From Lytechinus pictus (Eukaryota): DNA of 64,000 bases. Below the pieces are notes generated by a model. That model did not search any database. It had not been told where the DNA came from and was given only the letters and a program-made list of their open reading frames with translations. Location of the stretch: contig NC_087251.1 of the NCBI RefSeq assembly GCF_037042905.1, positions 30,878,001 to 30,942,000 on the forward strand, written 5' to 3'. A program made the translations under genes and the position numbers. This document shows positions 1-64,000 of the stretch, piece by piece. Numbering within the stretch: the stretch's first letter is position 1; each line of letters opens with the position of its first letter.

Positions 1-1
1 C

Positions 2-37835: not shown

Positions 37836-37839
37836 CATC

Positions 37840-38680: not shown

Positions 38681-38888
38681 CGAAGGGGGGGGGGGGGGGC
38701 CAAGGCCCCCTCGGCCCCCCCCATGGATCCGCGCCTGAATTAGCCATAAAAAATATCACATTATCAGAGGATTAAGCTTTACCTTTTTCTTAAGCGTATG
38801 TTAATACTTTGAACAAAAAGAATTTTGTTTTTGTATGCTGGGGCAGCGATCCTGGGGAGGGGGGGGGCACAGTTCCCCCTACTTCTTC

Positions 38889-39236
38889 GGAAGCGTCGTG
38901 GTGTAGCGGTTCTGACTCTCGCCTTGTAATCAGAGGGTCGTGTGTTCGAATCCCACCATGGCCTAGCGTCCTTTGGCAAGGCGTTAATCCACACTTTGCC
39001 ACTCTCCACCCAGGTGTTAAATGGGTACCCGGTAGGATGTGAAAGCCTATATGTAGTATGCCTAGCAATTGAGTCTTTGAACTCTTGTTGGAATGCTCCC
39101 CAGGGAGTGGAGAAGGTGCATACATTGTATGCGGGCATGCAAGGATCCGATGACCGGGGTAATAATATGTCTGTAAAGCGCTTAGAGACGTCGTTCCGAT
39201 GTGTTAAGCGCTATATAAATGCGGAATATTATTATT
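38889..39236 (+). mobile_element. Full-length tRNA-derived SINE
   Basis: GTGGTGTAGCGG box A, GTTCGAATCC box B, AAATGGGTACCCGG core, AAGCGCTATATAAAT...(ATT)n tail. Confidence 0.85.
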
Positions 39237-40019
39237 CTTTAAGCACTGAAAAGTGCCTTTTTATGCAAGAAAAATGCCCCCTCACGAACGTGTACTGTGT
39301 CCCTTTCACCTGACGAGAACCTGTTTTAGGTGTTACCAAGTGCTCTTCCTTAATTGTATGCAATTTTTTAACCCCAAAAAAGCCCCCCCCCCCTCCTGGA
39401 ACGTGTTCTGTGCCCTTTCATCTGAGGGCCCGTTTCATGTCTTAAAGAGTGCCCCCTCGCCTTCTTGTAAGTGCCCTTTCTCGAATCACTGCCCCCTTTT
39501 ACCCAAGAAAAGTGCTCCTAAAGAACTTGTTCTGTGCCCCTTTCACCTGAGAAGGACCCGTTTTATGGCCACCATGACGATTGCCCTTTGAAACAAGAAA
39601 ACAATATTCTCATTTCGATAATATACTTATGAAGGAAATCCTTTGTGCATTAAGTTTAATAATTCATGAGTGGGGGTATATAAGCAGTTTCGTACAGATG
39701 GAGGGGGGGGGGCTTGAAGGACTCTTGCCCCCCCCCAAAAAAAAAAAAAAAAGAGAAAAGGGTGAAATATATCATTCTGAATATTTTAGATTTTCTTTTT
39801 TAAAATGTCAAAATTTTGCTCGCTCGCAACGTCTTAAAAATTTCACGTAATACAGCATTTTCCCTATGCCCCCCCCCCCCACTTTCAACTTCACTCCACC
39901 GCTCCTATTTGTATGTTTATAGCTTCTCCTTTTGCAACCAGTTTTAATGAAAATCAACAAGAAATTTCATACGTCATGAATTTGGGGTTGTGATAATAAT
40001 TTTTTTCTTGTTGAAAAAT

Positions 40020-42900
40020 TGGACTTGGAAAAAAAAAAACTTTTCCATCTTCATCAAGTGGTTCCTAAGTCAGACTCTTGAATTGTTGGATTTCTTGAAT
40101 GAAAACATCTGTTACACCAGTCCTGCAGATTGAAAAAATAGAGAAAGAAAATCAATGAATTTAAATTAAAATTGTCGTGATTTATAAAACATAAATGTTT
40201 TAAGAAAAGTGAGACTATACATTTATATGATTCTTCAACACATAACAGGAAATCTTACTTCTACTAATTATAAACTTGTACTTCCATAAAGCATATCACT
40301 TAACCTGTTCTATACAGTTTACATACCACTCTCCATTATAACTACATGTACTCTATGAAAAAAATGTCAGAGATTTCTCATAAATATGAATATATGAATC
40401 AACATATGTAAATTATATAAATAGTCAGAATTAAAGTTGATATGACTTGTTGCACAGAATATTTTGATCTGTGATTAAAAACGACACTAACTATAATCTA
40501 AAAACAAAATTGAAATGGGTTTTTCAAAGGCAGGTCTATTTGTTGCAAAAAAAATGTGAACAACCTCCATTATCAACAATATTCACTAATTAACTCACTC
40601 ATATATCTGCTGTAGGTTGTATTTCTCTTTGTGGTCTAGTCGCTGTTCTATTAGGCCTACTTCACCAATTATTTATCATCATCAATCACCTCCATGGAAA
40701 TTGTAAAACTGCATCATCCTATTGGACAAAATGTAAAATAACAAGATTTAAAAAAAATCGTAAATCTACAAATATGAAATATGAATATCACACTAAAGAA
40801 TGAATAAAATGAATTTTTGTAAAATATGGAAAATAGATATTGCTTTGTTTAAAACAAATAGGAAATAAAAAGGCCATTTAATTACTAGTAGATCAAGGAC
40901 ATGATCTTACCGGTATTTTATAAATTTGCCCAAGGTACATAACTTTTGGCATTGGTTCTATTTTAGACTCGAGAGCCTGTATATTTAAGAAGTGTCTATA
41001 TTCATTACAGATCCTACCTCTTTGTGGCTCGGATTATTTTTATTTAATGTAAACATGGTTAACATTCAATGCATGTAATGTATCTGTAATTTTGTATGGG
41101 TTAGTTTAAGTTTTATACCTGGATGAGAATCTGCAAAATGATGCATGCACGTATGAATGATCATCATCTTGAACCATATAGGTAGACCTCTACTGTTTTT
41201 CTTGTTCTTCAGACTCAACCTGTTTGTGAAAGAAAAGAGAACAATAATAAGAAGTGATCTTTTTCATGGCCGTATGTATAGGGGGAGGGGTTTGGGTAAG
41301 AGCTGAAATGTGAAACCTTCATCAAAAAGAGAATTGCATGACATCCTTCAATTTTACTTTAGAAAATGCACAAAACGGCCCTAGGTAATATTGGTCGCTT
41401 CTGGCCCTCGCTTTCTGAATTTTAGGTTTCTCTAAATTTTTTCACATGTCTGCCCCCCCCCAAAAAAAAAAAAAAAATCTGGATCTTTTTATTTCCGAAT
41501 CTTATTTCATTTGATTTTAACATAATTTCATAATCTCATGCACTAGGTCTAGATCTATTTAGTCTAGATCTAGTCCAACAAGACTCAGTGCTGTGCGACA
41601 GCATTCATGTATCTAAATTAGGTCTAGATCTAGACTAACGATGGACTATCGATCTATCTAGACCTAGAAAGTAAAGCTTCGGTTCTAAACCGAGATCTAG
41701 ACCCTAGGCCTATATCGGTTTAGAAATTTTTGATGTCTGACTCTGACTTTTATTCCTGGCTAAGACTTCATTGCCATTATTGACCAAGAGTAGATCTAGA
41801 TCTAGTCCTTGGTCCACTGACAGTCAAACTCGTACATGTAAATGGAGTCGTTTAGGCCCAGACCTAGATCTAGGCCTAAATTACAGACCTAGATCATAAG
41901 CCCTGGGGGTAAGTGTCGAGGGTTGGGAAAGTATAAGTTAGACTAGATTTGAATTAGGTAGGCCTATAGCTCTTGTCTTGATAGCATCGATGAATAAATA
42001 AAAGTAAAGTAGCCTAGCCCTAGTCTAGATCTAAAGACTAAAGTAAGTAGGGCCTAGGATTAAGAAGATCTAGGCCCTAGATCTATTGATAATAAGACAA
42101 ACATGCAGAGCAGCATGTTATTTCTAAGACCGAGTCTAACTATATATTTATAAATAACAATAAGAGTTAAAATGGGTGGGGGCTAAATGCAGAAGCCTGA
42201 AGTTATGCAAAATAAATTTGATATCTGAAACAAAGTGAGGACTGAGGATTGACACAATGACATGTCAATGACAGGCGTATCTTCATCCATACTCCGCTTC
42301 ACAGTTTATTCCTGACTGAGTCTCGATCTACTGAAGATAGATGCAGATCTCCCTCTAGATCTAACGTTACAGTGTACAAAAAGAAGCCTCATTCTTCTTG
42401 TTTTAATCAATCGTGGGTTGGTCCTTGTTGGAGGTTAACCAAACCAGCCCGATTATCTCTCGATTCCCAGCCGGCTAGGAGCCCGTACAAAATACATGTG
42501 GTTAACACAGCGGCATAACGGCATAACCACAACACTGCAAGCAACATACAGGCTGCACTGCCACTGGGCGACGATGACAATCTAACTTCAATTTCAAAGA
42601 CCAAATTCTGCTTTCCTTTAACAGAAGATTAATAGCAAACTCTCTAATTTGTTAAACAAATAACCTAAGATCACAAAATACAGTGTGAAATGTGTAAATA
42701 GTCCACTGAATTCATGTGGTTATATCAATTAATACGTACTCACCGGAGTGTTCGTATAGGTCCATTTTGTGTGTGGAAAGAAAAGTTTCAGAATGAATAA
42801 ATTAAATGACGTAATGAGGTCAAATGAATAATTAATTCTGTAACACGATACCACTAGTATCGATGACAAAGAATCGGGGAAATCGCGTATTAATGACGCT
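40020..42900 (-). ncRNA. Possible spliced non-coding transcript (both ends uncertain)
   Basis: Minus-strand splice signals define a first donor at 42744 (CCG/GTGAGT), exons 41219-41119 and 40718-40599, and an acceptor at 40122. No sustained ORF. CCAAT/CpG-rich region upstream at 42850-43040. Confidence 0.35.
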
Positions 42901-43809
42901 CTTAGCCAATGAAAAGGCCGGATTATGAATATCTTCATGCTCATGAATGTCAATGAGGGCTTATTTTTGTCTTCAAATGATCGCGGTAGGCGGAGCCTAT
43001 CTCATTTGTTTTGTGCTGAACGCGCACGCAGCTTTCGGTCTAGTAATATATTATAAGGTCTTTGAGTCCAGTACATTGGTTTTTCAGACCATAACACAAA
43101 TGATGTCAATTCTCAAGTATGTGTACTCTATCTGCACTGGTTATCTGGAGTAAAAAAAAAAGTGTACACTTGTACACTTTATAACTGTGACTGAGAATGA
43201 TGTATTCAAAGTGTTATTTCTTCATGTCACAATGTCTACCTTTAAGTACCATCTTTACTGACACTGTACATGGCAAGATACCTCTTATACTTGCATTTAA
43301 ATTGTTAAAAGCAAGAATTCTAGCACTTTCTTTGGCAATTTCTTTTAAATAGAAACAAAATAAAAGAGACAATTTAAATGTGATTTGCATACACATTTTT
43401 AAATGAAAACTACATAAAAGAATATATCATACTTTTTCTGAAATAAATTATGTAACAAGAATACATAATCTTGAAAGAAGAGATGTTGTTCACATATTCC
43501 CTTTTTGATTCACACACATGTAAGAGAATATTTGCTAGAATATTTCCTGATAAAACAAGTAATCTTAGAATGTACTTTGGCAAACTTTTAGATACAAAAT
43601 AAATAATAAATATGTTGTTGTAAAGTGAATGAGTTACATGCATACATCTCTTTGAAAGTCACGCATGAAACACAATTTGGACATCATGTGAGGCTTGAAC
43701 AATAACATAAAAGAATGAAAATAAAATGACTGTGATGAATATTCTATAAAATATAGAATTAAACTTCAGCCACAAAACCAAACAATGGTTAAATATAAAA
43801 CATCAAGCA

Positions 43810-46800
43810 TCATATTTCCATATCTTCATATTCAGAGTCCGTGCTTTTTCTGTCATATTCTTTTGACAGGATATCAACTTCCAAGCCACTTTCAATGTCT
43901 TCATCATAAAGGATACTTAAGGAACTGCTCACAATAGAATCATCATCATCATCACCATCATCATCCTCAACATCATCATCGTCATCCTCAACATCATCAT
44001 CGTCATCATCGTCATCATCGTCATCATCATCATCATCATCATCACCAGCATCATCACTATCATCACGATCAGCTGAATATTCTGTTATGGTGTCACATGT
44101 CGGTGTAGATTGCATTGGTATAGTTACATTAGGAACATTTTCACAGTGTTTGCATCTACAACCAGGGCCACATTTTCTTTTATCTTTAACACATTTACAA
44201 AGCCTATTTATACATTTGCTCTTAGAACAAGCACAGCCTCGAGTAAGGTATATAACATTTTCTCTAATGCGATTGATATTTTCTTCTGTATCCCAAATAA
44301 TACTAACCTTGTTCTTATCATCTTGATTTGTTACATTATATCCATACAAAGAAATGTTTGGGTATATAAAAATTGGAGAATTAACTTCATCCCATACTGT
44401 TGATACCCAACAACTCCTTAACCAGTGAAGGTTCAATGCAGAATTAGAAGGGAGCAGATCATCTTCATATTCACCTTTCCATGAAGCTAAACGTACTATA
44501 TCCAGAGCCTTATGATGTCGTGATATAATATCAGAATCTTCTATGCTATTGTACAGATCAATAATCGAATTGTAATTATGAAGACAAGAACGGTTAACAT
44601 GGTAATATATGCACATAATAAGGCGATAAAAAGACATTAAACCATCATCTGAATTAACATTCAATTCAGTTTGAGCTAAGTGACCTTGTGTATTACTGTA
44701 GCATCCAGTAATAAAATGAGCATGTTGGAAAAACAATTTAAAAAAGGTAGGCTTCCCTATATGCGCAAAGTATGAAACAAAATCACAACCTGACGTGATA
44801 TACAAAACCTGTAGAATCTTCCGAACATTTAACTGTTTATTTATCATACTTGCCAAATCAGAATCATGGTCACATGCAGACTGTAATGAATTGAGATTAA
44901 GATATTTTTCATCCCCCGCTCGGGCACTATATTGCACTGTGACATGTTTATTACCAAAGTTCAAGGGAAGTCCTATCATACCGATATCTCGATCAATAGA
45001 ATATATGAGAATATTATTGCAAGGAGTACTATTTACATGTAACCAAATCTGTGTATCACTTTCCTCGTGATTATGGACAATATTATGATGATCAATGCCT
45101 TGCTCACTTATTGAAACACCTGTCCACTGACTAGAACTCTCAATTCCGACATGAAATCCTCCAGAAGTAATAAAAACTTTACCACTGTTTATTTCAATAT
45201 AATTTTTTACAAGCTCAATAAATTTATTTGACAAATAGCGACATAAGGTGTGTTTATTCTGGCGTACTTTAAGAAAATTATTCCACTGGTTTGGAAGAGG
45301 GACTTTGTCATCAAGTGACTCATAAAAATAACATTCTTCTTCAGTTTTATCCCTTCTGCTACGTTCTACATCTTTTGGAGAAATACCCTGTGTTCCTACT
45401 TGATCAAAGAGGATCCTGACTTCTTTTACATCTTTCTTGAAAAAAGACAACACCCATCTAGCTACCAAAAATTGTGCATATTCCTCAAATGTTTTTAGAT
45501 TTTTCAGGGGAGAACTATATATTATATTCATGCCTTCTATAATCACACATGTATTAGACACAAACTTGAAAGACGGGGACACTATTTCATAATTAGATGA
45601 GTATCTTTTGTTAAAAAAGTCATAAATAACAGATTTGGTACCTTTGTGTGGTAAACCATCCTGGTTACAAATAGCCCTTGGGTATTCTGCAAACTGACAA
45701 AGTTCAGAAATTGGAGTTTTAGTTTCTCGAGAAAAGGCGATTGATCTTTTGTAACAGCGGGTAATAAGTTTCTTCTCCTTTTCAAGATCAGTTACTTTTT
45801 TCCGCCGTAATTTCTCTTTAGCAAATGTCTTTAATTGGAATTTTCTTTTCACAGGTTTTTTAACAGATGTATCATTTAGAATTCTGGTCTTACAGTAAGA
45901 TTCATATGAATCTTTACCTATTTCCCTATATGACATGAGACTTTTTTGTTGTGCAGGGGTAGCTTGAACATTTGAGACAACATGGTATAAACTGGCATCT
46001 TGAACAGAATGAAACATGGATGTTTTGCATACTGCATCAAAATATAATTTAACATTGCTGAATTCAGACTGAAAAACTGACCAATTTAAATCCCTATGTA
46101 AGGTTTCACTATTATTAATCCCTAATTGATCTTCAAATGTTCGCAATAATTGTGCTTGGTATTCAATACTACCTACTAACTGTTCCATGTGTTTTGGGAG
46201 ACCACCTGACAATGCCATCTTACAATCCTTATTAATTAGCATCTCGTGTGCCTCATCTAATGCTACAGATGAATAATTTGTTCCCTTGATATTTGACACA
46301 AAAGAACCATTCTTGAAATGGTCTTAAACATAACAAGGCAAGGCATGCAAAGTACTTATATGTAATGGTATTAAACGTGAATAGTTTTGCCGATCAAAGG
46401 CATGAAAAAGGGGAGCCATACTCTTAAGGGCAGCCATTCGTAAGTCCCAATTTCTTTCCCTAATGGCTATATACAAACTAATATATGCTAACATGTCTTT
46501 TCGTAAAAAACCATTCCAAAATCTAAAAGTTTCATATTTTTCAGACATATCACTGCAAAAAGTTGAAAATTCTTCCATGAAAGGAATCATTGTCACTTGT
46601 TTAAGGTTATTTTGTGCATCTACAAATTCATTCACCCCACTAAACTGGCCTTTATTGAAAGATAACTTTAATAAACAATCATTAATATCCGAAATAAACT
46701 TGTCATTGGAAATATCTATTTCCTTCCCAGCTCGATACTCCAAAAAGCATGATAATTGATTCATGAAAATTGCTTCATACACTTGCATTAAAAACCTATG

Positions 46801-49230
46801 GGTTCTTTTAAAGTTTGAACATGAGGCTAAGCTTTGTAATGTCATTTTTTTATGAGATGCTTTGGCAAAATCTTTTAAGCCAGCTTCCCAAAATACTTTA
46901 ACTATCACTTCCTGGAAGTTTTTAAGAACATGCCAGTCTCCAAGAAAAGGAATAACCCAATCTAGTGATTGACCACACTCATGCTTAAGATCATACAATA
47001 ATCTAACAGTAGCACCATCACCAGCAACAATTAAATGATTCATTTTTTCATTTATACAAAATGATTTCTGGAGGTGGAATAAGGCCTTCTTGATGGTAGA
47101 TGGAGAGTCAGCTTTCTCATTCAAAATATACAAATATGAAAATTTTGATTGCTCAGTGTATTTGTCACCTTCCAATGCTAATTTAGATTTAAAACTAGGT
47201 ATTATAGTGTTCTCTCCTGATTTTACAAATGTATATCTCTGTGCAATATAAATCACCATATTCAAGAGGATATAATCTGCAGATTTGCCCTCAGAATCAG
47301 ATAAAAAGAAAATATCCTCACATAACTGGTTCCTTATATATGTTTTATATTGAGGAATAGAAAAATCGCTTTTACTAGGATTATCACTATCTTGAAAAGT
47401 GGGCAATTTCCTGCGGACACTTGGTTTTTTTAATTGTTTATTTTCTGACGAAATATTACTATTATCATTTTTATCATAACTCCATACTTCAGATGAATTC
47501 AATTCCTCGGAAACTGGTTTTGGTTGCTGGGCCATAATGGAAGTGCCATGGTAACTTCGTGAGGAATCTGCTACTACTGCAGCAAAGGAAGCTAATTTAT
47601 CGATATTGTCTATTGAAACACATGTTAAATAAGAAAGGTCAAGATTGGATAAAACACCTGAACCCTCTCGGATATCTTGAATCCTTTGCAGAAATCTTAC
47701 CAAAGTGTCATCAGAGCATGACAATCCTAATCTATTCATTATTTCTACCAATTTTGTTGAATGTGATATACGTTTAATTACATTGGCAATAATGATGTGA
47801 AATGGATAGTTGTTTTCTTCATTAAGAACAAAATGCATTACAAAAATTAAAGCTATTCTCCTTATTTTTCTTTTTTGACCAGCTGCACTTTTATCACTAG
47901 GGAAATCCAAATGTTTATCAAGAGTAGAATACATCATTGTATTATTATAATATTTCAATTCCTCAGTACTGGCTGTTAGAAGACATATACAATTCCAGAC
48001 ATAGGGGTGAAACAGAATATTAGCAGCCCCGAATTCAAAAGTTTGAAGTGAGAGAGGATTTGACAAAAAAATGTCATTTATATCCTTAGCTTGCTTACGA
48101 AGGTGAGTATTAAAAGTTGAACAAATGTCATTAAATTGAGAGACAACAAAAGAACTTTCTTCTTTAGGCATATCATATGAAGTATCAAGAGATGAATCTG
48201 TTTGCAATTCACATTTGTTTCTTTGAGCTCTTATCTTGGCACAAGAATTATGCCATGACTCAAGCATGTCAGGCACTGAAATATTATGCACATATAAAAA
48301 GGTTCCTTTTTTTAGTGCTAATGTGTGAACACACAAAATGTCAGAAAATCTATCAAGAATTTTTGATAATAACCACGGTTTTGACCTTAATGCCCTACCA
48401 TAGAGAAGATCACTCTTGCATGCTTTCTTCACAGAAACATTATAAAAATCAAATGCATCTGATAATAAGAAGCCATTTTCAGCTTTGCATATTTCACTTA
48501 CAAATATTAAAGTAGCATTTAAACATTTTGAAATGATATCTTTTATATCTGTTTCTTCAGAATCTTCTTCATATTGCATTGATATCTTCTGAAGTTCATT
48601 TTTAACATCATCGAGTGATTTTATTTGTTGGCCTTTACGATTTGCAAAACAATAACATGAAGAACAAATAAAGTTATCTTCTTTTATAGACAGATTTTCA
48701 TTAATCTGGCTTAATTTGGCAATGCCTTCGGTGGATAAACAAGTGCTTACATATTTCTTACCACTTAGCTGACAATCACAAGCAGCACAAATGTTGTTCT
48801 GCTTCAGAGAAAAATTCAAAAAGCGCGCCCTGTGACATTTACAAAGATATATAGTTTCAGGTATGTTTTCAAGTTGCAGTGAAAATATTTCATTAAACTG
48901 GGAGACACTGCACTGCGTCTGAACTGCACCAGCTAAATCACAATCTAAATATACTGACAAAAAGCATGAAGAATCCTTCATTTTTTTTCTACTTTTTTCT
49001 GGTGTATAGGACTCATTCTTCAACTTTTTTGAATATTTTTGCCTGCAACTGTTACATATACAAGACAAATCTGAAATGTCTGTAAACTTTGATTTGATTA
49101 AATCTTTTAGCATTTCAGACTTAATTAAATTGAAATGGGTGTATTTGTGGGATGTTTTTTGACAAAGGCTACATGGACCACATGAAAAATTTCCACAGGG
49201 CTGCTTACGTTTGGTAGGCTTCTCTTTCAC
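43810..49230 (-). pseudogene. AcademX-type transposase (Zn-finger N-terminus, DDE core, XPG/PIN nuclease, Cys8 finger, acidic tail) split by one in-frame TAA
   Basis: ORFs 46324-49230 and 43810-46299 share a frame (PCYV*DHFKNGSFVSNIKG). Motifs SIDNID, YHGTS, VAGDGAT, LGDWH and VALDEAHE (candidate DDE region). IIEGM, LFD, ERSRR, HEESDTQI, SIDRD and SGCDFVS (XPG/FEN-like). CACSKSKCINRLCKCVKDKRKCGPGCRCKHCEN (Cys8). This domain order is the described AcademX architecture. Confidence 0.8.
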
Positions 49231-49745
49231 CCCAACGAAACATTTGTATGTTTGTTACACAATATTGTACGAGGTGCGATTGAAGGTGGAACAGGTGGAG
49301 GACGGGGATCAGGAGCTAGAGGAGAGATAGAAGGTGGAACTGGTGGTGGATGGGGATCTGGCGCTAGCGGTGCTATTGAAGGCGGAACTGGTGGTGGATG
49401 GGGATCAGGAGCTAGAGGTGCGATTGAAGGTGGAACCGGTGGTGGATGGGGATCAGGAGCTAGAGGTGCTGTTGAGGGTGGAACCGGTGGTGGATGGGGA
49501 TCAGGAGCTAGAGGTGCTATTGAAGGTGGAACTGGTGGTGGATGGGGATCAGGAGCTAGAGGTGCTATTGAGGGTGGAACTGGTGGTGGATGGGGATCTG
49601 GAGCTAGAGGTGTGACTGGACGAGTGACACGAAGAGCCGAGGATCTTACTTGTGGAGAATCACATGTGTTCGAAAGAGCTCTATTTGTGACTGATGGTTG
49701 GTCATAGTGATGTTGGGCCAGCAAGTGGACATCCTCATATTTGAT
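49227..49745 (-). CDS. Proline-rich repeat exon upstream of the transposase frame
   Basis: Acceptor TTTTTCATGTTAACCACAG/ATC at 49745. Seven 48-bp (16-aa PLAPDPHPPPVPPSIA) repeats. The stop overlaps the transposase frame by a 1-nt shift at 49227-49230. Confidence 0.6.
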   Translation of the reverse strand: MKYEDVHLLAQHHYDQPSVTNRALSNTCDSPQVRSSALRVTRPVTPLAPDPHPPPVPPSIAPLAPDPHPPPVPPSIAPLAPDPHPPPVPPSTAPLAPDPHPPPVPPSIAPLAPDPHPPPVPPSIAPLAPDPHPPPVPPSISPLAPDPRPPPVPPSIAPRTILCNKHTNVSLG

Positions 49746-50136
49746 CTGTGGTTAACATGAAAAAAAAAAACATTTAGACAAAAACATTAGTAAAAGTGAA
49801 AGAAAAAATGTTCCTTACAAGTCAATCTCATGCACAGAAACATTTCTTAATCAAGTTAAATTAAATGTTTTTTTTGTTGTTTTTTTGCAGTGCAAGATCA
49901 TTTTTAATGACACCTAAAATGGTGACAATAAATGGGCTTTACCGATTTCTCAGGCAAACAGAGCATTAAGGCCAGTCTAAACTGCATCAATGGAAAAAAG
50001 TTAGGAAAGTGTAAAAAAAAAATTGTGGTCATGCATTTTACTAGCCTAACTATCATTTAAAACACCCTGCCCCACTTGCCCCTACCCCCACAAAATATAA
50101 TAATGCCCAGCCACCAAAGTTAGTAGACCTAAATAC

Positions 50137-50836
50137 CTTCTTCCTTTTCCGGTGTTTCTTGATCCTCTGCCGCCTCCTCTTCCTTTCTCTGGCCTTCTTG
50201 CGTGAAGTAACATAAGGAGTAGGGGACTTGGGGAGTGGGGAACGGGAGCATGTGTGGTAGCATGATGATTGTGCTGGGAATGTTGTGTATGGAATAAAGC
50301 TCGGGTTCTTAAATGCTGGCTCGTGATATTTAGGGGGAGGAGGGAGCAACACTGGATCTTGTTTTTTTACAACTTTCTTTTTTTTTCTCTTTGGTTGTTC
50401 CACCTTCGGTTTAACATAAGGCTTTCCATATCGTTCCCTTTTTCTGTATTTTATAAGGGCTTTTTCCTTTTCTGAGAGGATTGGTTGTTGAACAGTTGAT
50501 TTTGAGCAGGAACTTCTGGAAGTATTATTCAATTTTTTTAATTCTTTAGGTATTCTAGTGGTTTGCTTGGGTTTGAAGTTTTGGTAGTAAACAAATTGAG
50601 ATATTAAATTTGTGAATTCAGAAGCAAGTGCTGCCTTCCCTTCAAGAGTTAGATGAACACCATCAACATAAAAAAACCTATCACTGCACAAGAAGGGGGA
50701 AGTGGCATCTACCACATAACAATTAAAAAAACTTGAACACAATTGGTGTAAATTATTATTATAGTATCTTGACTTTGTGTATAAATCTATAGAATCGCCA
50801 AATCCAGTAACTTTTAAGGATGAGCACTGGGGCAGC
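50137..50836 (-). CDS. Exon encoding an SGNH/GDSL hydrolase-like segment plus basic (NLS-like) region
   Basis: Acceptor TTTTTCTGTTCACATTACAG at 50836. Translation LPQCSSLKVTGFGDSIDL...YNNNLHQLC...VVDA...FFYVDGVHLTLEGKAALA. Phase-0 donor AAG/GTATTT at 50137 matches the phase-0 acceptor at 49745. Confidence 0.6.
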
Positions 50837-50961
50837 CTGTAATGTGAACAGAAAAAGTAGTCTTACATAAGTAAAACCTATATTATTTTACATCGCAATT
50901 CAAATCAGATTGAGCTAATGAACATAAAAATTTCATGATGAAAACATGATCAGGCCTTATA

Positions 50962-52794: not shown

Positions 52795-52975
52795 CCCCCA
52801 TACTATCGATAACAAAAACATAACACGGAAATACACGTACGGGACTAGACACTAGTTATTTCGTTCACAAAACCCAACGTCGACGTCACAGGTTTTCGCG
52901 CGGTTTCACCAATTCTACAAAGCAAACGAAGGCTACTTCCGGTCAAATTTGATATTTTAGTCACTTTTCAAACTG
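52795..52975. promoter_or_regulatory. Candidate bidirectional promoter
   Basis: Local CpG enrichment with TATCGATA (DRE-like), GACGTCAC (CRE-like), TTTTCGCGCG (E2F-like), CCAAT, ACTTCCGG (ETS-like) and TTCAAA (CHR-like). Splice donors diverge on both sides (minus near 52795, plus at 53050). Confidence 0.5.
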
Positions 52976-53017
52976 GTTTTTAAGAGAAAAGAGCTGGTGA
53001 TTCGATCAAAATCCCCG

Positions 53018-53050
53018 ATGGCATCACAAAGCAACATTTCATCTTTTCAG
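53018..53050 (+). CDS. Candidate novel first coding exon (MASQSNISSFQ) for the duplicated TANGO1 exons
   Basis: CCGATGG start, 11 codons, strong donor CAG/GTAAGA in phase 0, matching the phase-0 acceptor at 54063. Confidence 0.45.
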
Positions 53051-53073
53051 GTAAGAAGTTTCCATATAAAACA

Positions 53074-53357
53074 GTTTTTTTCAGACCCGGTTGTTTAAAA
53101 AATTATAATATTAAACAACCGGGTCTGGAAAAAAAGACTTTGGACTTATATTATAATTTTTTAAACAACCGGGTCTGGAAAAAAAGACTTTGGACTTATA
53201 TTATAATTTTTTAAACAACCGGGTCTGGAAAAAAAGACTTTGAACTTATATTATAATTTTTAATTAACCGGGTCTGGAAAAAAAGACTTTGAACTTATAT
53301 TATAATTTTTGAAACAACCGGGTCTGGAAAAAAAGACTTTGAACTTATATTACAATT
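53074..53357. repeat. 49-50-bp tandem repeat (5 units) preceded by an inverted partial unit
   Basis: Unit TTAAACAACCGGGTCTGGAAAAAAAGACTTTGGACTTATATTATAATTTT starting near 53111, 53161, 53211, 53260 and 53310. Inverted copy at 53074-53110. Confidence 0.95.
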
Positions 53358-53520
53358 TATACTTTGCACTTTTATGCTATATGAAGGCATTTCTATAGGA
53401 TTTTAGTTCAGAATGATTCACAATGTTTTGGAAAAAGGTAGGGGCTGAAGTTCCCCCCCCCCCCTCCCTCAACTTCCGCAGCCATACTCTAAAATGTTTT
53501 ATCCTTGTCACAATGCATCG

Positions 53521-54011
53521 GGAAACTGTCCCCATCCCCTTGTTGAACGAGCACGATTTTATGTTGTGAGGGGACGGTATCACGAGTATAATATACTGTT
53601 GGAGCTATCCCCACTGCGTGCCAAACGAACTGTGTATCCCATAGCGTGGGGACTGGATCACGAGTATACTATACTGTTGAAACTGTCCCCACTGCGTGCA
53701 AAGTGAACCGTGTATCCCATAGCGTGGGGACTGGATCACGAGTATATATACTGTTGAAACTGTCCCCACCGCCGTGAAAATCAAGCTTGATTTCCCGTTG
53801 AGTGGGGACTGTATCACGAGTATATAATAGGGAGAGAACCCTAGTGTTTATATACAATGTGTTTCATTTGTGTGTGTTATCATTTTGCCACAGAGTTGTG
53901 CGAGAGTTGGAGACTGTGTTCTGGAGAAAGGAAGTGATTTTCATGCGTTCTGGTAGGTGTGATTCTAATAATCCCCACTTTAGGATTTGGGGACTATATC
54001 ACGATTATGCC
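53521..54011. repeat. Repeat-spacer hairpin array ending in a transposon-terminus-like sequence
   Basis: 43-44-bp repeats GGGGACTGGATCACGAGTAT..ATACTGTTGAAACTGTCCCCA at 53570, 53648 and 53726, partial copies at 53521, 53804 and 53989, separated by 34-35-nt spacers. Confidence 0.85.
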
Positions 54012-54062
54012 TTCTAATTTAATGGCATATGATTTATAAGTACCCATAATTTTTTTTTACAG

Positions 54063-57000
54063 ACAAAATACAAGGAAATAACTCACACCTCTAAAGAGCA
54101 GCAGAAAGAGATAGAACAGATAAAAGCAACTATTAAAAAGAAGACGTCAGAGCATGAGTCTAGTCAACAGAAGGTGCATCATTGTTCTCAGATACTTTGC
54201 AATAATTATGAACTTTTAAGTTCTACTCATTTTGTTTAAAAAGATGATAATTTACAAATAAGTTTTATTAGAATCATTTATAGGTATGTAGGGATGCTGC
54301 TTAACCCTAAAATGGTTGGATCAACCCCCCCTCAACATTTTCTGCGATCATTCCGCCGCACTAAATTTTTTGACCGCGCCACTCGCAGAGTTTATACTTT
54401 TAAGTCTCGTGCATCTTTTGAGACCAAATTTACGATGCCTGGGTACGAGGTTCCGAAATTACGCAACATTTCGTAAGCGCATGTCAGACCAAAAATTGTT
54501 CCAAAACGTGATTTTGTGTACAAAGTCAATGCAAATTGAGTTTTCTCATCTTATTCTTAAAGATATGATTATTTTTACTTTACACAGCTGAAAGCAATTA
54601 AGGTTGTGCAAAAAATCTGGTGAAAAAAACTAAGAAAAACAAAAGGTTGAAAAACAAAGAAATACATAAGAAATTCATAAAACAATAAAATACATAAGAA
54701 ATTGATTTCCAGACCAAAGTTTTTTTCAATTGCCATTGTTAAGAATGCTACAGAGAATATTTTTACCAAAAATTAGCATTCTAGGAGCTTTATTTAGTGA
54801 ATTAGAGCAAAAAGTATGATTTATGCATAAATTAGCATAATTAATTCATATAAAATAAAATCTCATTATTTTGGAAAATTTTACCATACAGCCTTGTAGA
54901 TTACATCACACACTACCAGCGTGCAAATTTTTGCGGCGCTTGCGCGATCGGCGGCCGAGATCTCGGCCACAGAACAGCCAAAAAAGCCCAGCCTAGTTAG
55001 GGTTAAACATAAATGCCAGTTTGGTAACAATCTAAAAATGTACCATGTACATGATTCCAGGAGTAAATGGGCAATTGCTGAGAAATAAGCATGCTGTTCC
55101 ATCCAAATAGTACACTTTCCTACATGTGCGTATGTGTGTCATTGTGGTCATTTTCACCTGAATTTTATTATTTTATGAAGTTACGTTTATGTAAATAAAT
55201 CAGACCTAGAGCCACCATGGTATGCTGACAATTAACCTTGATTTTAAAGACTTTCTACAGGTACGTAGTTTTAAGGAACTGTTTAGTTATCATCCACTTG
55301 AAAATGTTATTAGGTAATAAGTGGATTCAAATAATTTTTGAAAATTTGTTAGAGGTTTGGTAGTCTCTAGTCACCCCTATTGCTTTTGACCATCATAAAC
55401 TTGATTTTAAAAAATGTTTTGAAAGTTGGCATCGATTTATTGCATGTGTAAGTAATCCCTTGTGTTTTTATATTGCAGATTAAATCATTAGAACAGCAAG
55501 TAAAGAAATCACAGAAAACCATTTCAGATTTGAATGGTCAGGTGAATGATGTAAGTTGCATATAGTGATATAATACACACCCCTCCCTTTTTTTCTGACT
55601 GATATTATCCTGTTGATTGAACATTAAAACCAAAAGTGTGTTCAGGTGCCCATAACACAAAACTTGATGATTATTCATAGAGTTGATTTTTGTCATGTAA
55701 TTAATCATAAAAATTCATGATCATTTGCTAAGCTTAGTGTTGTAGACCCCAAGAATTCTGTTTCATGGAAATTTGCATTTATCTCATATAATAAGACATA
55801 TCAGTGCATATACTATTGTAAATGTGAAATGAGAATCTACACCAATGTTGAAAGTGTGTTATGTTTTGAAAAGATTCAAGTGAATGAGTTATTTTCATAC
55901 TTTTTCCAAATAATACCATTTGGTATCTGTAGTTTTAAAGCTTGTTGCTTTGATTTGTATAAACCTCAAACATGATGTGAATTTTTACGGTAGTGCATTA
56001 AAGTTGTATTTAATTAGACCTGTAAATGAATCTGAATATGTTCTGATCTCACTTCACAGCTGCAAGGAAAGGTGTATGCTGGTGAGGAAGAATGTTCTCA
56101 TCTTGAGCACAATATTGGTACATTAGAAAAACAGAAACAACAACTTGATACCAGCAAAGAAATGGTGAGGATACCAGTCTTTCATGTAACCTTTTATTAC
56201 ATGATACTTTTGAATAAGAAAAAACGACATACCTCTAATACTTTCATCACTATCCTGTTTTTCTGCATTTATTAAACTGCATGTGTAAGATCTTTTCCCT
56301 TCGAAATTTTCTGCTACAAATGGGAGGGTTGTACTCCAAATGTCATTTGTGAATGTATAAGGGCTTTGAATAATGATAAGTCTATTTATATAGTGGGCAC
56401 GTCGTGGTCTAGTGGTTCTGATTCTCGCCTTTCAAATAGAGGTTCGTAGGTTAGAATCCTAGCCATGGCGAGTTTTCCTTCAGCAAAGAATTTATCCACA
56501 CTGTGCTGCACTCGACCCAGGTGAGGTGAATGGGTACCCGGCAGGATTTATTCCTTGAATGTATCAGCGCTGAAAGGCAGCTCGAGCTAAAGCCGGGGTA
56601 ATAATATTAATAATAATAATGCGCCTTGGGATAGATTGTTTCTATATGGCGCTATACAAATGCCTATTATTATTATAGTGCAGCCGATCTAAGAACAAAC
56701 TTGGCTGTATTTATGTATCATATTCAGCAGAGCTGTCATATGGTTTATACATCCCTTACACTCAAATGGTATGTAGAAAAACCGTACAAACTTCTTTTAA
56801 TGAATTCATGGTTATCTTTCCTCTTGACAGCTTGAAGATGAAATTAAAGGATGGAATGAAAGGTGAGTTAAACCATTTTTGTTGTTGTTGGTTGAATTGA
56901 GTTTAGATTTTCCAAGAGATAAAGATTTCTTTCTTCAAAATTCCATATGCAATGCCAGCAACTACTCGGATGAAAGAATATTAATTTGATTCACTTTGCT

Positions 57001-60000
57001 ATGAAATTGATTAACTTTAGTAAGATGCATGGTATAGATGATAATCAATATGTGTACCATATTTAAATAACAGAGATATGGCTATAAAAAAGTTTTGCTA
57101 AATGATTACCATCTGTTTTCTAGACATTGTCATGACACATTGGATATAGATATATGTGATAGTTTAACAGTATTATGGTATGGTATTATTATTTATTATT
57201 GATTTTATATACTTGCAGAGTCTCCGAACTTTCAGAACAGATTAAATTGATTACAACAGAGAAGAAAGATATGGAGGAATCATTAACATACAAAGACAAT
57301 GAAATAGAGGTAAGTTTGGGAAATTTGCAAATAATAGCCAATTTTTATAGAGCGCTTTTCCCAGAATGGCTCAAAGCGCGTTACAGCATATTATTACCTC
57401 GGTCATTGGATTCATTTCAATCCTGCACGAAAAGTGCACAATTTCCACTCCCTGGGGAGCATTCCTTGCATTCATCGCAGCCTCTTTATGGCGCTGGCAA
57501 AATCAAACATACAATATCTTTCGCATCCTACCGGGTACCCATTTAGCACCTTGGTCAAGAGTGGCAAAGTGTGGATTAACGCCTTGCCAAAGGACGCTAG
57601 ACCGCGGTGGGATTTGAACACACGACCCTCTGTTTACAAGGCGAGAGTCAGAACCACTACACCACGGCTCTTCCACGCTCTGCAAAGAAAGAAAATCATG
57701 CTAGAATGATCTCTGAAAAATCAGTATTGTAGTTGCTTATAGTTCACAGCCTTTTAGTATATGATAAAATACAATTACTATTGGAATACATGTGGGACAA
57801 AATGGAGTCATTAATTGTCTCCAGAGCTCTTTTACTGGCATCTTAATTAGATAATTTGATGTAATTGTCATAGAAATAGTTGTGAGAGAAAGTATATATA
57901 TTTATGATACTTAGTTAGTCTTGTTTGTTGTAATCTAATGGATTAAGTGAGATGGAAGTAATGCAATGCAAATCAATATCACAATTTTCTGTTTTATTCT
58001 AGTCTCTTTATATGATATATTGCAATACATAATAAATGAATCTTATATTTGATACAGATATTGAAACACATCATGAATAAATCTTTTATTTATGATACAG
58101 GTATTAAAAGACTGTCTACTACAACTCAAAGGATTGGAACATATACAAAAAGAAGGACCAGGTATGAGGGCTATGTATTTTGTAGTAATTTGAAGATTAC
58201 ATTCCTATCTAACCCCAATGAACAAACAAACAAACAAACAAAAATAAACAGAAGAATTATGAAATAGAATAGCAACTGATGTTATACTTTTCTTTTTATT
58301 TGGAATTGTATTCATTTTGTAATATTTTATATCACTTTTTATCCGTTGTCCATTCGAATCTTATTGATGCATGCTGATAATGGATGAAGGTTTACAAAAA
58401 TACTTTTCACTTTGGAGATACTAAATGATTTCAATTTTGCCTAAAACATGGTGATTTGGTTGTGTTTTTTACTTGATTGCTCAGAAAGCCTGAATGCTTG
58501 GAATATCTTCTACCTATGAGGAAATTTATCAATCCTTTAACATTGATATAACTGTCTTGTGTTCTTTGCTTTTGCAGAGGTTGACTCGGAATCTAGAATA
58601 CAACAGCTTATGGATGTTACAAGAGTAAGAAAATTTTCTATTATAAAACTAATATTTAAATTTTTTATTCTTACATTGTGTAGAATCGCTTTACTTGATT
58701 TGAAAAATAGTCTACTTTCAGTGATGAAATCATTTTTTTGGTGTGTGTGTGTGTACGTAACCAGGCATTTGTTTTGCCTAACCCCTCAAATTTACCTATG
58801 ACACGTGATGAGCAGATATAAGTGAATCATATAATGCCTGGGCCCCGTTGCATAAAAGTTGCACTTTATCTTTGCCATCCAGTGGTAACTTCCATGGTAA
58901 CGATGCTCATCAGCCAATCAGAATCAAGGACTCTATGCAAGTTACTATTCGATGGAAAAGTTACAAAACTTTTCTGAATCAGGGCCCTGGTCTTGGTTCT
59001 GTGATGAGGATGATTTATTAAAAAAAAACGTATCTACACCTCTCTCTTATAAAAACAAATGATATGCATAATCCACCCGGGTTACCATTGAAACAATCCA
59101 AACACTCTCGACTTCCAATGGTTCATTTTGTGCATAGTTATTACTACCAATGCCCTCACCAACTTATCATTAATTCCTTTGTAACAGGTGAATGCTAAGC
59201 TATCTCTGATTCAGAAGGAGCGTGATGAGATACAACAGAAATTAGATGATGAGGTGAAGTGTGGACGAGATCTGGAATCTAAGGTAGGAATGCTACATCA
59301 CGAGATTGATGCACTGCGTATGGAACATTCCAAGGCTCAGAGTAACCTAGGTGAAACTAAGACAAAGATGGAGGTTCTCCAGGAGTACTTCAAGGGAAAG
59401 GAAGTCGAACTACAAAGGTAAGAAATATTTCTTGTACTCTTTCATATTTCATTTTCCCTGTTTAAACTATGTCAAACAAATGAAGGTATAGTTAAATCAA
59501 AACAGTGCAAATTTTACAAAGTTATAGATCCAACACCATATGATTTAATAGGTTATATTTCAAAGTAACCAGTTTCAAAGTTTAAAAAAAAAAATCTTTT
59601 GGTAAATGTATTTTTTTTCTTTACATTGTTACTGTGTGATATACTTAGAATTCATTAAAATCTTAATAAATTTTGAACCTTCATGAGATTCATAAACTTG
59701 AGTAAATGATGTCTAAAATTGGAAATATGACAAATAAAGATTTACATAGAAATACATGCAATTCTATCCTTTATCAGCATTTTTTTTTAAAAAGGGGACA
59801 GACATCACCTGTCACTGCAAATTTAGATGTTTATGCTTTTACAATTTTTGCTTCCATCTTATATGATATTTTAGAAAGATGAATTTTATAAAGATTAATA
59901 ATAAACTAGTACAGTGTATTAATGCTCAAAATTGGTTGCATCATTTTTCATTTCAATGGGTTTCTATCTATTGTACCAGGATAATCATTTCTTTATAATA

Positions 60001-63000
60001 CATGTATTTCACTGTTAATTTACATTTCTGTTCATTTTTTTTTCCATAGGAAACTTGGAAGAGAGGAAGCCTTGAAACTACAAAGTGAAGAACAGCTCAC
60101 ATCACTAAGTGAAAAGGCAATAAATGCTGAAGTAGATTTGAATAATTACAGGTAAAGTGCTCTGATCAAAACGCAATAAAATTATAATAATTTTGATTAT
60201 TGGGCAATTCCATAAAATAATGAACCATTGGCCCTATTCTTTTATTTTCATTTCATAACTATAGCCATGATAGTTTTGGAGCATTGGAGCATTGCAACAT
60301 TCCATATGAACTAGAAAATGGGGACATATCATTTCAGGAAAGACTCGCACATATGGGGTTGGTTGTACCTTTTATTGAATCACCCAATAATGGAAGTAAT
60401 GATAATGCAATTTCTGAAGTGCTTGCATCCACTCTGCATTGTGTCCAAGGGGCCATTGTCGTTGTTACCCTGGTTGAAGCCTAGCTGCTTTCCCAGTAAA
60501 AAAAGCACTTCAAGGAATAAATATTCCTGCCAGGTACCCTTCACTTCACCTGGGTCGCGTGCAGCTCAATTTGCTTAAATTTGTTGCTCAAGAAGACAAT
60601 GTTATGTCTGGGATTCAAACCCACAGACCTCTGATTGAAAGGCAATAGTCACTAAAGTGTACTAATAACAAAAATAAGTTTAACAATTATTCACTGAATA
60701 AAGCAAAAATTTACTAATTGAAAAGCAGTCAGAGAGATTCATAATAACATATTACATAAGTACATCATCTTCGATCTAATTTCTATTCCAGGCATGAGAC
60801 TAATCAATTATTTGTAATATTTCAAGCTCTCCTAAAATTACTGCTGTAAACAAATGTGAATGAAAGTATTTGCTTTGTTTTATATGTTTGTGTGTTTTAT
60901 AATTGAGGCAGTTCTTTCAGTGAAAACATGTTTTCAGGTATGAAAACATTTATAGATTATATTAAAATCTGTATAATTCTTTTCTTTGCTGTTTACCTTT
61001 TTTTTTTCAGACAACAAATTGCAGATCTGAAATCAGAATTGGAGAAATCTGAAAGAAATTATAAAACTCAGGTAAGGTTTATGGAAGTTCAGTTATGGAA
61101 TTGGGTTACATGTGTGGGTGGTTATCTTATAATTTGTTCCACTTTGGAATATTGTGATCTGCAATCATTTTATCATTGATTTTGTTGAATCCCACAATGC
61201 AGAGTACAGATGGTTGTAAAGATGTGAGGGTGAAGTTTATATTTGTGTAATACCATCAAACGAGAAAATTGAAGACAAGTTGTTTCTATTTTAGAAATAG
61301 AAATATGCAGTGAACTATATATTGCTTGATGTGTTATATCAGTAATGTATAGTTCATGTTTCAGTCTTTATTTTTGTCTTTCCAGATTGCTGCACATGAA
61401 AAGAAGACACATGAACACTGGGTAAGTGAAGAAATCCAACCAGATTGCTTTATTTCATTTTCTTCAATATACCCCCACATGTCTCCAAGTTGAATCTATA
61501 TTTGAGTTAATAACCCTTATATTTTATTTATTGTAATATACAATTCCCTTATTCCTCTTTAACATTGATGTCACATGTCTATTATTTGTAATGATCTTAA
61601 CCCTTTGATATTTTATTATTAAAATTGTAGACATACATTAATAACCAATTGTCAATGTTTCACTTGATTTTCTATATATTTCCTATAATGCCATAATTGA
61701 TTCATTGCTATCATTTCAGTGTTTTTTTTTATCAGTGAATAAATTATACAATTAGTAGTTTTATAATTAGTGACTGTTCCCTTTTGATAACTTAAATATT
61801 TCAGTTGTATTCATTTAAGTAAAAAAAATGTTTATTTATGTTACAAAGTAAATAATAAATATTTTATTTATTTCTTTAATACATATAAGTGTTAACTGTT
61901 TTAGAATGAATAAGGAATATTTTTTAAAGCTGTGGCAGATCCAGGTAGGGGCACATTTGGCCCGTGCCCCCCCCCCCTTTGAGAGGCACAAAAAAAATTG
62001 AGGGAAATATGTCATGCGTACGAAAGGTAAAGTGAGGACCTTTAATTTTTTTTCCTTCCCTCCCCCTTCCTGTGGAAAATCCTGGATCCGCCCCTGCTTT
62101 TAAGAATAGACAATTTCTTGGTGTTAGTAGATGCATTATGAGTAATGGAAAATGCAATATTCTTTTTAAATGTTATTGCTCTCATTTCCTCCATGACATA
62201 CAAGTTGTCTTCAAGAACGGCAGAAAGAGAGCTCCAGGAAGCAAAGATGGAAGCTGCTTCATTAAGACACAGGTAGGGATAGATCTTTCCATTTTATACT
62301 CTCAAGTCATTTCTTTTGTGAATTTTCATGATGGATACAGCACTCATTGGCCCGTATTCTCAATAGAGGTTTCAATTGTACCATGGTACAAAACCATGAA
62401 CTATGCAGGTATTGTGTATATATGATGACACTTATTTCATAGCGTACACTAAGATAAGTCTAATTATAAATGCAGGCCTGCCAACTATTCCTTTTTTCCA
62501 GGAGTTACCCGTTTTATCAACCAAAAAGAGAAACACTCTGTTTTTCTAATTATTTCAGATAAAAAATAAATCAGCCCATATACGTATTTGTGTGGTGGAG
62601 TATGCAGACATGCCAACTGTTCCCTTTTTAGAGTGTTTGTTCCTCTTTTTTGCTATGTATACGCCAATATTTTTTTTGTATGATTTGTTACTTTTTTTTA
62701 AATTTCCGATCAAGGAGTATGTGTTATTTGTTAAATGTCTGTAGATTAACAGAACTAGAAGGAAGGCGAGCTACATCTGAGAATGCTCCTCTCGTCAAAC
62801 CTCAGGCTGCAGCACCATCCCCAATGAGTGAGTACCTTCATCATAAACAGAGAATATCATGTCATGAAAACCAGCAAGGCAATCTAAGCAAATTCATTGA
62901 AAGATGACAAAGTTTGTGAAGTGAAACATTAGATAATGAAATGCTATAATTTTGCTTTAGTACCGACCAAGGCTTATTTATGGAATGAAAATACCTGTTA

Positions 63001-63838
63001 ACTGCTGTGAACTGCACTAAAGTATCCAACTGAATGAAGGAATATAATAATACCATGTAATTTCAATTTACATGAATTTGTTGTGACATAATAGATTTGG
63101 ACATCATGTAATTTGTGCCCTTTATAAGATTAAAAAGAGAGGATTGTAACATGTTATATTTGGTTATTTTTATATTTTTCCAAACAGGAGTAGTGTCTCC
63201 ATCATATGGACCAGGGTGAGTATCTATAGTATGTGTGATAAAACCGATCACATTAAAAATAAAAATAATAAATACCGACTGTTTAAACTTATCCCCCCTC
63301 CACTGACACTTGGTGTTTTGCATGCACTAGCATATGCTAAGTTATGAGTGAATTAATATCATCACTGGATGAAATTATTAGATTGATCATCTGTTTAACA
63401 ACCCAAGCTGGTGTCATTTGTTTGTTTGATATGTTTTTCAATTCAAATTACGCATAATATGCATTTCTCATATAAAATATTTTGTTGTATAATTCTTGCA
63501 TATTCTAATAATCAACACTTTTTATGGTCAGAAAGTAATTATTTCCTTGCATTTAAACTTTATTCTGCTTCTTCCCTTACAACACAGTGACCGAGGCAGC
63601 AAGATGTCCAGGAGAGGTGTGTATCTATTCCCTTTATCATCTATATCAGTGGATCTTGTTCAACATTTTGAATTCAACATTTTGGGGGGATGGAATATGA
63701 ATTGTGTTTGTAACTTATGTACAGTAAACTCTGACTGTAACAAATGACAAGAAATAGTAGTTGATATATCAGTGAGCAGGCCAAGGTCACCAGAGCCCTC
63801 CTTACAGAACAAAGGATTGAAGGGGGGTGATACACATG
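54063..63838 (+). CDS. MIA3: 5'-truncated duplicate of TANGO1/MIA3 (cytosolic coiled-coil exons), continues beyond window
   Basis: Exons 54063-54173, 55479-55550, 56060-56164, 56831-56862, 57219-57309, 58101-58161, 58578-58624, 59188-59417, 60050-60151, 61011-61071, 61386-61421, 62205-62272, 62745-62827, 63188-63215, 63588-63616 (plus candidate 63773-63838) mirror copy-1 exons from 5778 onward. All GT-AG sites and the frame are intact. Homology starts at 54012 (= 5727). Confidence 0.85.
54305..55002. mobile_element. piggyBac-like non-autonomous element, present only in copy 2
   Basis: TTAA-CCCTAA ... TTAGGG-TTAA. The corresponding copy-1 site near 6018 is empty. Confidence 0.8.
56394..56678 (+). 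mobile_element. tRNA-derived SINE shared by both gene copies
   Basis: Counterpart of 7443-7725 at the same intronic position. Confidence 0.8.
57332..57680 (-). mobile_element. tRNA-derived SINE, present only in copy 2
   Basis: TSD TGCAAA (57326-57331, 57681-57686). Empty site AATTTGCAAAGAAAG near 8370 in copy 1. Confidence 0.85.
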
Positions 63839-64000
63839 GTGAAAATACTTGCTTTTAGTTTCATGACGAAAAAAAAAATTATTTATTTATTTATTTTTCA
63901 TTTCAATTTGATTTATATTTAGATTATTTTGATTGTATTTATGAACTGTTGCTGGGCTTGCATCTATGGATTGCATGTTATTGTATATGTCTATAGAAGA

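Follow-up and report, generated by a model that had tools for sequence, protein, structure and literature searches.

Introduction

Transposon-made duplications and chimeric genes are already known (PMC3744419; PMC1592236, both cited here from partial texts), and the locus of the sea urchin Lytechinus pictus described below is a new, well-marked natural case rather than a new kind. It lies in a stretch of 64,000 nucleotides (C7:30878001-30942000, hereafter the window) in which a 3' part of the TANGO1/MIA3 gene occurs twice, as copy 1 and copy 2, on either side of transposon sequence. An initial annotation of this DNA had proposed that copy 2 forms a newborn chimeric gene, in which a transposon-side promoter and an 11-codon exon are fused in frame to a TANGO1 without its membrane anchor.

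Hybrid-element insertion of the P element, in the 1996 work of Gray and of Preston, is said to yield direct duplications joined at an exact transposon end, as found here. Transposition of maize Ac through reversed ends likewise gives a direct duplication with its joint at an exact transposon end and no matching target duplication, and a terminus of this kind at a duplication joint is regarded as a mark of alternative transposition (PMC3744419, partial text). The present locus differs from both the Ac and the P-element cases in being a natural animal allele, in that the mover would be a non-coding foldback nested in a second transposon and leaving one arm, and in that the copies appear to come from different alleles rather than from sister chromatids. 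Reversed Ac ends have also placed 3' exons behind a foreign promoter and first exon, in frame, but there the 5' part came from a paralogous host gene and some alleles were functional (PMC1592236), whereas here the 5' part is transposon sequence and any expression is putative. Galileo of Drosophila buzzatii, which resembles a foldback and has long inverted ends with internal repeats, likewise sits at a natural breakpoint, though in PMC2775673 (partial text) it is associated with inversions, two elements and exchanged target duplications, in place of the duplication with one arm seen here. The sea-urchin foldback transposon of Liebermann et al. 1983 (cited in PMC4079207) can be likened, by description only, through its long internally repeated inverted arms.

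On the protein side, the coiled coils and proline-rich tail of the TANGO1 family bind family members and COPII parts (bioRxiv 10.64898/2026.04.28.721365, in part). Copy 2 resembles TANGO1S and cTAGE5 in having no luminal SH3-like domain while keeping coiled coils and proline-rich tail, but TANGO1S retains its membrane segment (same source) and copy 2 loses that segment together with 64 further cytosolic residues. The engineered Drosophila Tango1-CYT is closer in lacking signal peptide, luminal and membrane domains; it is a transgene holding the whole cytoplasmic part, which reaches endoplasmic reticulum (ER) exit sites and rescues a knockdown, and is not dominant negative (PMC5379956, partial text). 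Among eight papers retrieved for TANGO1 together with sea urchin, none dealt with this locus, judging by titles and the openings of abstracts.

A repeated TANGO1-BIRC6 unit with joints at transposon ends

Comparison of the window with itself and with the 812-Mb assembly gave the order unit A (5727-22996), a 31-kb insert and unit A' (from 54012). Positions 5727-14471 recur from 54012 onwards, and the repeat extends past the window into the sequence continuing 3' of it (L005) as far as L005:8234, about 72,200 in extended coordinates, with the copy-1 side covered to about 22,996. The duplication does not end at 63838, with the piece covered by the initial annotation, but takes in the TANGO1 3' untranslated region (UTR) and reaches the promoter of the next, BIRC6-like gene (exon match to BIRC6 chains, E ~6e-5, residues 6-59). 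Unit A stops at the first base of the insert, 68 bases before the BIRC6-like start codon (compare L005:8245-8314), whilst unit A' leads into an intact BIRC6-like first exon and start, which lies in L005. Each is single: no second TANGO1 5' part and no second BIRC6-like start were found in the assembly, and the 5' side of copy 1 (4900-5760) is single-copy apart from a dispersed repeat.

We moderately favour the view that a recent tandem duplication at a transposon end joined two different alleles of the TANGO1-BIRC6 region. This is because the joints are exact transposon termini, the transposon arm is young, the copies diverge at the level of heterozygosity and copy 2 carries insertions of its own that look older than the joint; because copy 2 holds single-copy sequence absent from copy 1; and because amino-acid changes fall on both branches and the copy-2 base occurs in a transcript-like contig that fits the normal gene. 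An Academ-like element (E1) sits 68 bases upstream of the BIRC6-like start on the copy-1 side, and a foldback element (E2) lies at the inner end of E1. The right end of this foldback, with the left part of the chromosome attached, would then have inserted into a TANGO1 intron of the homologous chromosome by hybrid-element insertion, duplicating 17 kb and restoring an intact BIRC6 start, and the left foldback arm would have been lost afterwards at a short run of T. On this course of events the copies would have been born 2-2.6% apart, already carrying the synonymous bias of two normal alleles; the 11-codon exon would be E1's own sequence, its phase match with TANGO1 a one-in-three chance, and in carriers it may be joined to copy 2 by low-level splicing. 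On the ancestral carrier haplotype the BIRC6 promoter was probably damaged, and the duplication gives back an intact one.

The right joint and the divergence between the copies

The insert begins and ends at exact transposon termini. At the right joint (54011/54012) a target duplication is missing on the left, and the sequence upstream of 54012 has no homology to copy 1, so the joint shows the exact terminus without matching target duplication that characterizes alternative transposition. The E2 arm runs from the centre of a palindrome to this terminus and has 70 matches (among the best 40 of 151 candidates scored), including a C17 copy that is 99.0% identical over 941 bases; 1 substitution in 647 separates it from the copies on C17 and C3, which are the nearest among 14 loci compared. 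Family members have paired arms of 800-940 bases with internal tandem repeats, as foldback elements do, and 8-base target duplications flank all five elements with both exact ends visible (nine examined). The element described by Liebermann et al. is reportedly named TU and said to make an 8-base target duplication, as the E2 family does. Longer members at C6:8989149-8998872 (L037, L032; 9.7 kb, 8-base target duplication) and C8:41694007-41711340 (about 17 kb between arms) may hold a transposase.

The copies themselves are far more diverged. Their TANGO1 introns differ at 230 of 8990 aligned bases (2.6%) and the entire duplication at 337 of 16,735 (2.0%), values inside the published range of sea-urchin heterozygosity, 1.31-4.4% (PMC13672419, partial text); the arm is thus about 17-fold less diverged than the introns (1/647 versus 230/8990, Fisher p = 3e-6). 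The 293 bases next to the joint (54012-54304 versus 5727-6022) contain 19 substitutions; at 6.5% they are clearly more diverged than the duplication as a whole, which averages 2%. The insertions found in copy 2 only look older than the joint, because they are 84-92% and 97-98% identical to their best scored relatives. The simplest reading of these sequences is that the copies were already different alleles when they were joined.

Within the window the coding differences are exactly those counted by eye in the initial annotation, 7 synonymous and 2 non-synonymous (E>K at 56129 and R>M at 62247). The substitution comparison, taken over all 18 exons, gives 18 synonymous and 8 non-synonymous differences and one in-frame 6-nt loss, and a ratio of non-synonymous to synonymous divergence (pN/pS) of 0.125 (p = 3.5e-7 against neutrality). 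Polarised by the Strongylocentrotus purpuratus protein P0001, 4 amino-acid changes are derived in copy 2 and 2 in copy 1, with 2 ambiguous. An open 630-codon frame, intact splice sites and a low pN/pS would suit an older paralog, expressed as a chimeric gene for a soluble TANGO1 fragment and retained by selection, an explanation that we consider very improbable; the ratio appears equally well explained by allelic origin, and the element at the joint is about 17-fold less diverged than the copies. Since the divergence between the copies is much older than the arm, the synonymous bias is best read as inherited from two alleles rather than as selection on a new gene. On these grounds the bias does not support a preserved new gene, and the caveat of the initial annotation, that two formerly functional alleles might be involved, fits better.

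Allele-level divergence would also be expected if two haplotypes of one animal had been mis-joined by the assembler through the 0.9-kb foldback arm, one with E1 and half a foldback at the BIRC6 promoter and the other with a normal gene whose TANGO1 intron holds a foldback, so that no real chimeric locus existed. Assemblers often cut long reads at palindrome centres. The arm starts at such a centre, and the copy-2 lysine base is found in a contig that fits the full-length gene. We nevertheless regard a mis-join as unlikely, though worth keeping in view: the window contains no N, the insert is coherent from 22997 to 53079 and so leaves only 937 bases that could carry the join, and at least four near-identical arms (0.15-0.16%, C17 and C3) were possible partners, yet the join is local and collinear. 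The single TANGO1 5' part and BIRC6-like start neither support nor exclude it.

The duplication would be real, with the same consequences, if unequal crossing-over had taken place between the E1 foldback of one allele and another foldback situated in the TANGO1 intron of the second allele. Such ectopic recombination accounts for allele-like copies and for an exact terminus without target duplication, tolerates half an element on the E1 side, and is the way in which the foldback-like Galileo elements cause natural rearrangements (PMC2775673, partial text). It requires a second insertion within 17 kb of the first, of which there is no sign, and the arm shows no mosaic pattern, although one would hardly be visible at 0.15% divergence; we hold this route, too, to be improbable.

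Table 1. Features of the locus, in window coordinates.
Feature	Position	Strand	Remarks
TANGO1/MIA3 copy 1, 3' part of full-length gene	1..16986	+	luminal, membrane, coiled-coil and proline-rich exons
Duplicated unit A	5727..22996	+	from the intron before the first duplicated exon to the BIRC6-like gene; collinear with 54012 onward and L005:1-8234
E1 left arm	22997..25062		sharp terminus at 22997
Nested repeat-rich 18-kb insert in E1	25063..43064		8-base direct repeat at both bounds
E1 transposase-like frame (DUF6589 and CXC/TCR domain)	43810..49254	-	Pfam; broken by a single stop
SGNH-like upstream coding exon of E1	50053..50862	-	weak Pfam match, E 0.045
CpG-rich promoter-like stretch of E1	52801..53017		CpG observed/expected 1.68 at 52801-53000
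Candidate first exon of 11 codons (E1 sequence), strong donor	53018..53050	+	identical in C5 copy
E2 single right arm (young non-coding foldback transposon)	53075..54011		palindrome centre to exact terminus
TANGO1 copy 2 (unit A')	54012..64000	+	15 exons in window; 3 more exons, 3' UTR and BIRC6-like start in L005
Copy-2 exons 1-5	54063-54173, 55479-55550, 56060-56164, 56831-56862, 57219-57309	+	
Copy-2 exons 6-10	58101-58161, 58578-58624, 59188-59417, 60050-60151, 61011-61071	+	
Copy-2 exons 11-15	61386-61421, 62205-62272, 62745-62827, 63188-63215, 63588-63616	+	
TTAA-flanked miniature transposon, copy 2 only	54305..55004		best relatives 84-92% identical (best 40 of 4205 candidates)
Insertion like a short interspersed element (SINE), 6-base direct repeat, copy 2 only	57330..57680		best relatives 97-98% identical (best 40 of 3516)
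Exon-like 66-nt segment, copy 2 only	63773..63838	+	AG/GT, phase 1-1, frame-keeping, open

The Academ-like element, its promoter and the mini-exon

Three other loci (contigs C2, C4 and C5) begin to match E1 exactly at 22997, with unrelated flanks. The C2 copy is without the 18-kb nested insert, 25062 being joined straight to 43065 with an 8-base overlap, and the C5 copy is collinear with E1 up to 53079, so that the insert between the units, the nested sequence aside, forms a single coherent element that extends from 22997 to 53079 and is collinear with both copies. On its minus strand the 18-kb insert contains exon-like pieces and a promoter-like stretch near 40050-40125, 41190-41225 and 42740-42900. 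The E1 transposase-like frame comprises 976 and 837 codons in register, and relatives on C11, C3, C2 and C12 share 57-58% identity in unbroken frames of 1744-1854 codons; two of these, at C11:9109735 and C11:9280845, match with equal scores and 1854-codon frames 171 kb apart, which points to an intact relative having transposed or been duplicated very recently. The SGNH-like exon is 31% identical over 129 residues to the matching exon of an intact relative (L053). AcademX elements encode one large protein with transposase, nuclease and cysteine-rich domains, and they carry terminal inverted repeats. We describe the insert, from its predicted domains and as a label only, as a broken Academ-like transposon; no nuclease domain was matched in the E1 protein by sequence among solved structures. 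At the locus the right end of E1 has been lost, and a motif search of the C2, C4 and C5 stretches did not recover it. AcademX target duplications are of 3-4 bases (PMC10045372, in part).

The promoter-like stretch matches the promoter of the intact relative (L053:1286-1320) over 35 bases at 80% (E 0.018), and the shared motif, which we take to be ETS-like, is oriented toward the transposase. A second copy of the stretch, 87% identical, lies on another chromosome at C5:55746936-55747293, and there the mini-exon and its donor are also identical but lead into unrelated repeats and no TANGO1. Because this C5 copy holds both, collinear with the transposase region, promoter and mini-exon are, by this sequence comparison, evidently transposon parts that predate the fusion. 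A native second E1 gene continuing from the mini-exon was not apparent, either as a frame among the open reading frames of L050 or on reading L004, where the copy is heavily interrupted.

Here again the older-paralog explanation has something to offer, the strongest donor in 11 kb standing beside a CpG-rich promoter, but the mini-exon is unchanged in a transposon copy without TANGO1 and its conservation is not beyond chance: the 60-base identical run over it is no longer than expected (P = 0.19, 20,000 shuffles), so that selection on the mini-exon gained no support. The intact related element (L053) also has no splice donor at the corresponding position. Part of the mini-exon (53034-53049) matches L053:1085-1105 on the minus strand at 16 of 17 bases, a score reached by 5 of 500 shuffles and found post hoc; the mini-exon may overlap a DNA-level motif of the E1 family. 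A motif resembling the left terminus occurs 400 bases inside the left arm (23391-23413) and recurs in the same direction at L004:296-316, after the C5 mini-exon.

The TANGO1 gene and the predicted chimeric frame

The gene is identified from its sequence as the sea-urchin TANGO1/MIA3 ortholog because its 76-codon exon (59188-59415) matches S. purpuratus P0001 at 84% and P0001 itself has an N-terminal SH3 domain (SH3_2, residues 45-100), as well as a hydrophobic segment near residue 1289. In copy 1 the exon for this domain would lie upstream of the window, and the SH3 domain is judged from the ortholog. The copy-1 tail is identical to P0001 at 537 of 612 aligned residues; its membrane exon occupies 3307-3426 and its stop codon 16984-16986.

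The structural claims of the initial annotation were borne out. The ATG at 53018, the 33-nt exon of 11 codons and the phase-0 GT donor after 53050 are all present, and joining the mini-exon to the 18 duplicated exons (15 of them in the window) gives 630 open codons in frame to the normal stop in L005. AG precedes all 36 exon starts of the two copies and GT follows all 34 internal exon ends. With a matrix made from 22 donors of the TANGO1 gene, the donor at 53050 scores 11.8 bits, the top donor-like site in 43065-54011, against a median of 9.2 for real donors. The promoter claim stood in that the stretch is transposon-derived and CpG-rich with a strong donor in phase, though the start context, with C at -3, is not a strong one. 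Pyrimidine-rich alternative acceptors lie at 53481 and 53893, between the donor and exon 54063. The arrangement thus has the transposon-derived promoter and first exon, and the possible in-frame splice to host exons, of a chimeric gene with a transposon promoter.

Maximum 19-residue hydropathy of the predicted chimeric protein is 0.21, compared with 2.36 for the P0001 membrane segment, in agreement with the loss of the anchor noted initially. cTAGE5 keeps its membrane segment. Copy 2 does not, and so is not TANGO1S-like in this respect; it is also without the first 64 cytosolic residues after the segment (P0001 residues 1309-1372). The fragment, if made, is predicted to keep most of the coiled coils and the proline-rich tail. 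The serine/proline-rich 66-nt putative exon of copy 2 (63773-63838) lies in a 153-base stretch that is single-copy in the assembly and missing from copy 1, has no counterpart in P0001, and is possibly a cassette exon lost from one allele.

Transcript and protein evidence

Twenty of the 24 listed runs contain part of 52700-53080, at least half of it in X1 only, and none is recorded as RNA; runs with shares of 0.21-0.34 outside the aligned set were left out of account. Reads or contigs of X1, X22, X24 and X9 were aligned to 52300-56200, with 15 of 53 joints, 24 of 617 loose ends and 16 of 1275 pieces listed, so that a weak joint could be hidden; contigs with 30 or fewer bases on each side of a joint might also escape alignment. 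X1 is RNA by guess and contains a spliced TANGO1 contig. Normal TANGO1 joints are present in all four runs, whilst the joint from 53050 to 54063 predicted initially, and any other joint from 53050, was absent among the 15 of 53 listed. In X22 and X24 (raw, stranded) depth is zero over 52431-53085, with about 6 in 100 of the reads sampled, a TANGO1 depth of about 3-19 and animals that may lack the element, so that the gap carries little weight; in these other animals all 12 of the reads over 56129 have the copy-1 base.

The main spliced TANGO1 contig of X1 (depth 67) has the copy-2 (lysine) base at 56129 and aligns from 54057, a start better explained by the last bases of the normal gene's upstream exon than by the mini-exon. 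Because mini-exon depth is 7% of that of this contig, full-length messages most likely include the lysine variant, as would be expected of an allele.

In X9, a run labelled as another organism, a contig crosses the donor unspliced to 53079, which with the missing joint counts against an older, expressed paralog. Its differences from the window, 16 of 430 bases in the promoter and 18 of 342 in the foldback, led us to reject special cross-species conservation of the promoter. Weak searches for protein records of the fusion found none; the 7 short homologs among 8000 scored candidates include none labelled from this locus, and the mini-exon start is absent from the three echinoderm ones, which again speaks against that paralog.

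Several points weigh against the joining of two alleles by a transposon end. Hybrid-element insertion should leave a whole foldback, so that the absent left arm needs an extra event, and ectopic recombination by foldback-like elements gives almost the same product (PMC2775673, partial text). Alternative transposition would also be expected to yield a reciprocal deletion with the same target site, and the assembly includes no second haplotype. No foldback transposase was found, the interior of the long C6 copy being outside the sequence examined. The age of the arm depends on the nearest one among 14 loci, and the picture would be no different if foldbacks had undergone gene conversion or if one had inserted late into an older joint; the ages of the copy-2-only insertions rest on 40 scored candidates each. 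The X1 contig with the lysine base could moreover be a mosaic from an assembler collapsing variants. In favour of expression, three X1 contigs are identical to 52357-53050 (0 differences, depth 3-6) where most unique TANGO1 intron bins are empty, and one low-depth contig stops exactly at donor 53050 with one base unaligned. The contig end at 53050, which the older-paralog explanation also claims, fits donor use, including a fork to two acceptors sharing their first base, and also a start on the minus strand or a contig that simply runs out; the same one-base overhang is seen in another contig, and the X1 bin depth (3.41 = 4.66 x 96/131) leaves no room for another aligned contig at the donor. 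A spliced fusion message in carriers is possible, though we lean against it, and production of a fusion protein is doubtful. Nothing shows selection on the fusion.

Discussion

A recent joining of two alleles at a transposon end therefore remains our preferred account of the locus. The initial annotation had suggested that the fragment might act as a dominant negative, a suggestion at odds with the fly data: because cytoplasmic Tango1 of Drosophila localises to ER exit sites and rescues a knockdown (PMC5379956, in part), the fragment, if made, would by analogy be likelier an extra scaffold helping ER export than a block to it. It is a rather unlikely scenario that the captured two-way promoter makes a spliced message, that the soluble 630-residue TANGO1 tail serves as an additional scaffold at ER exit sites, and that the same event repaired the BIRC6 promoter.

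The locus also illustrates a trap. In highly heterozygous animals, a young duplicate may arise from two alleles and so show strong synonymous bias without selection on the new copy, and here the transposon arm at the joint is the internal clock that reveals it. If the fused message is true, one could test in a natural setting whether secretion is supported by a TANGO1 tail that lacks the membrane anchor, as it is by the fly transgene. The locus would then offer both a naturally occurring TANGO1 free of the membrane and a clean example of a duplicate whose allelic divergence, present from birth, imitates selection.

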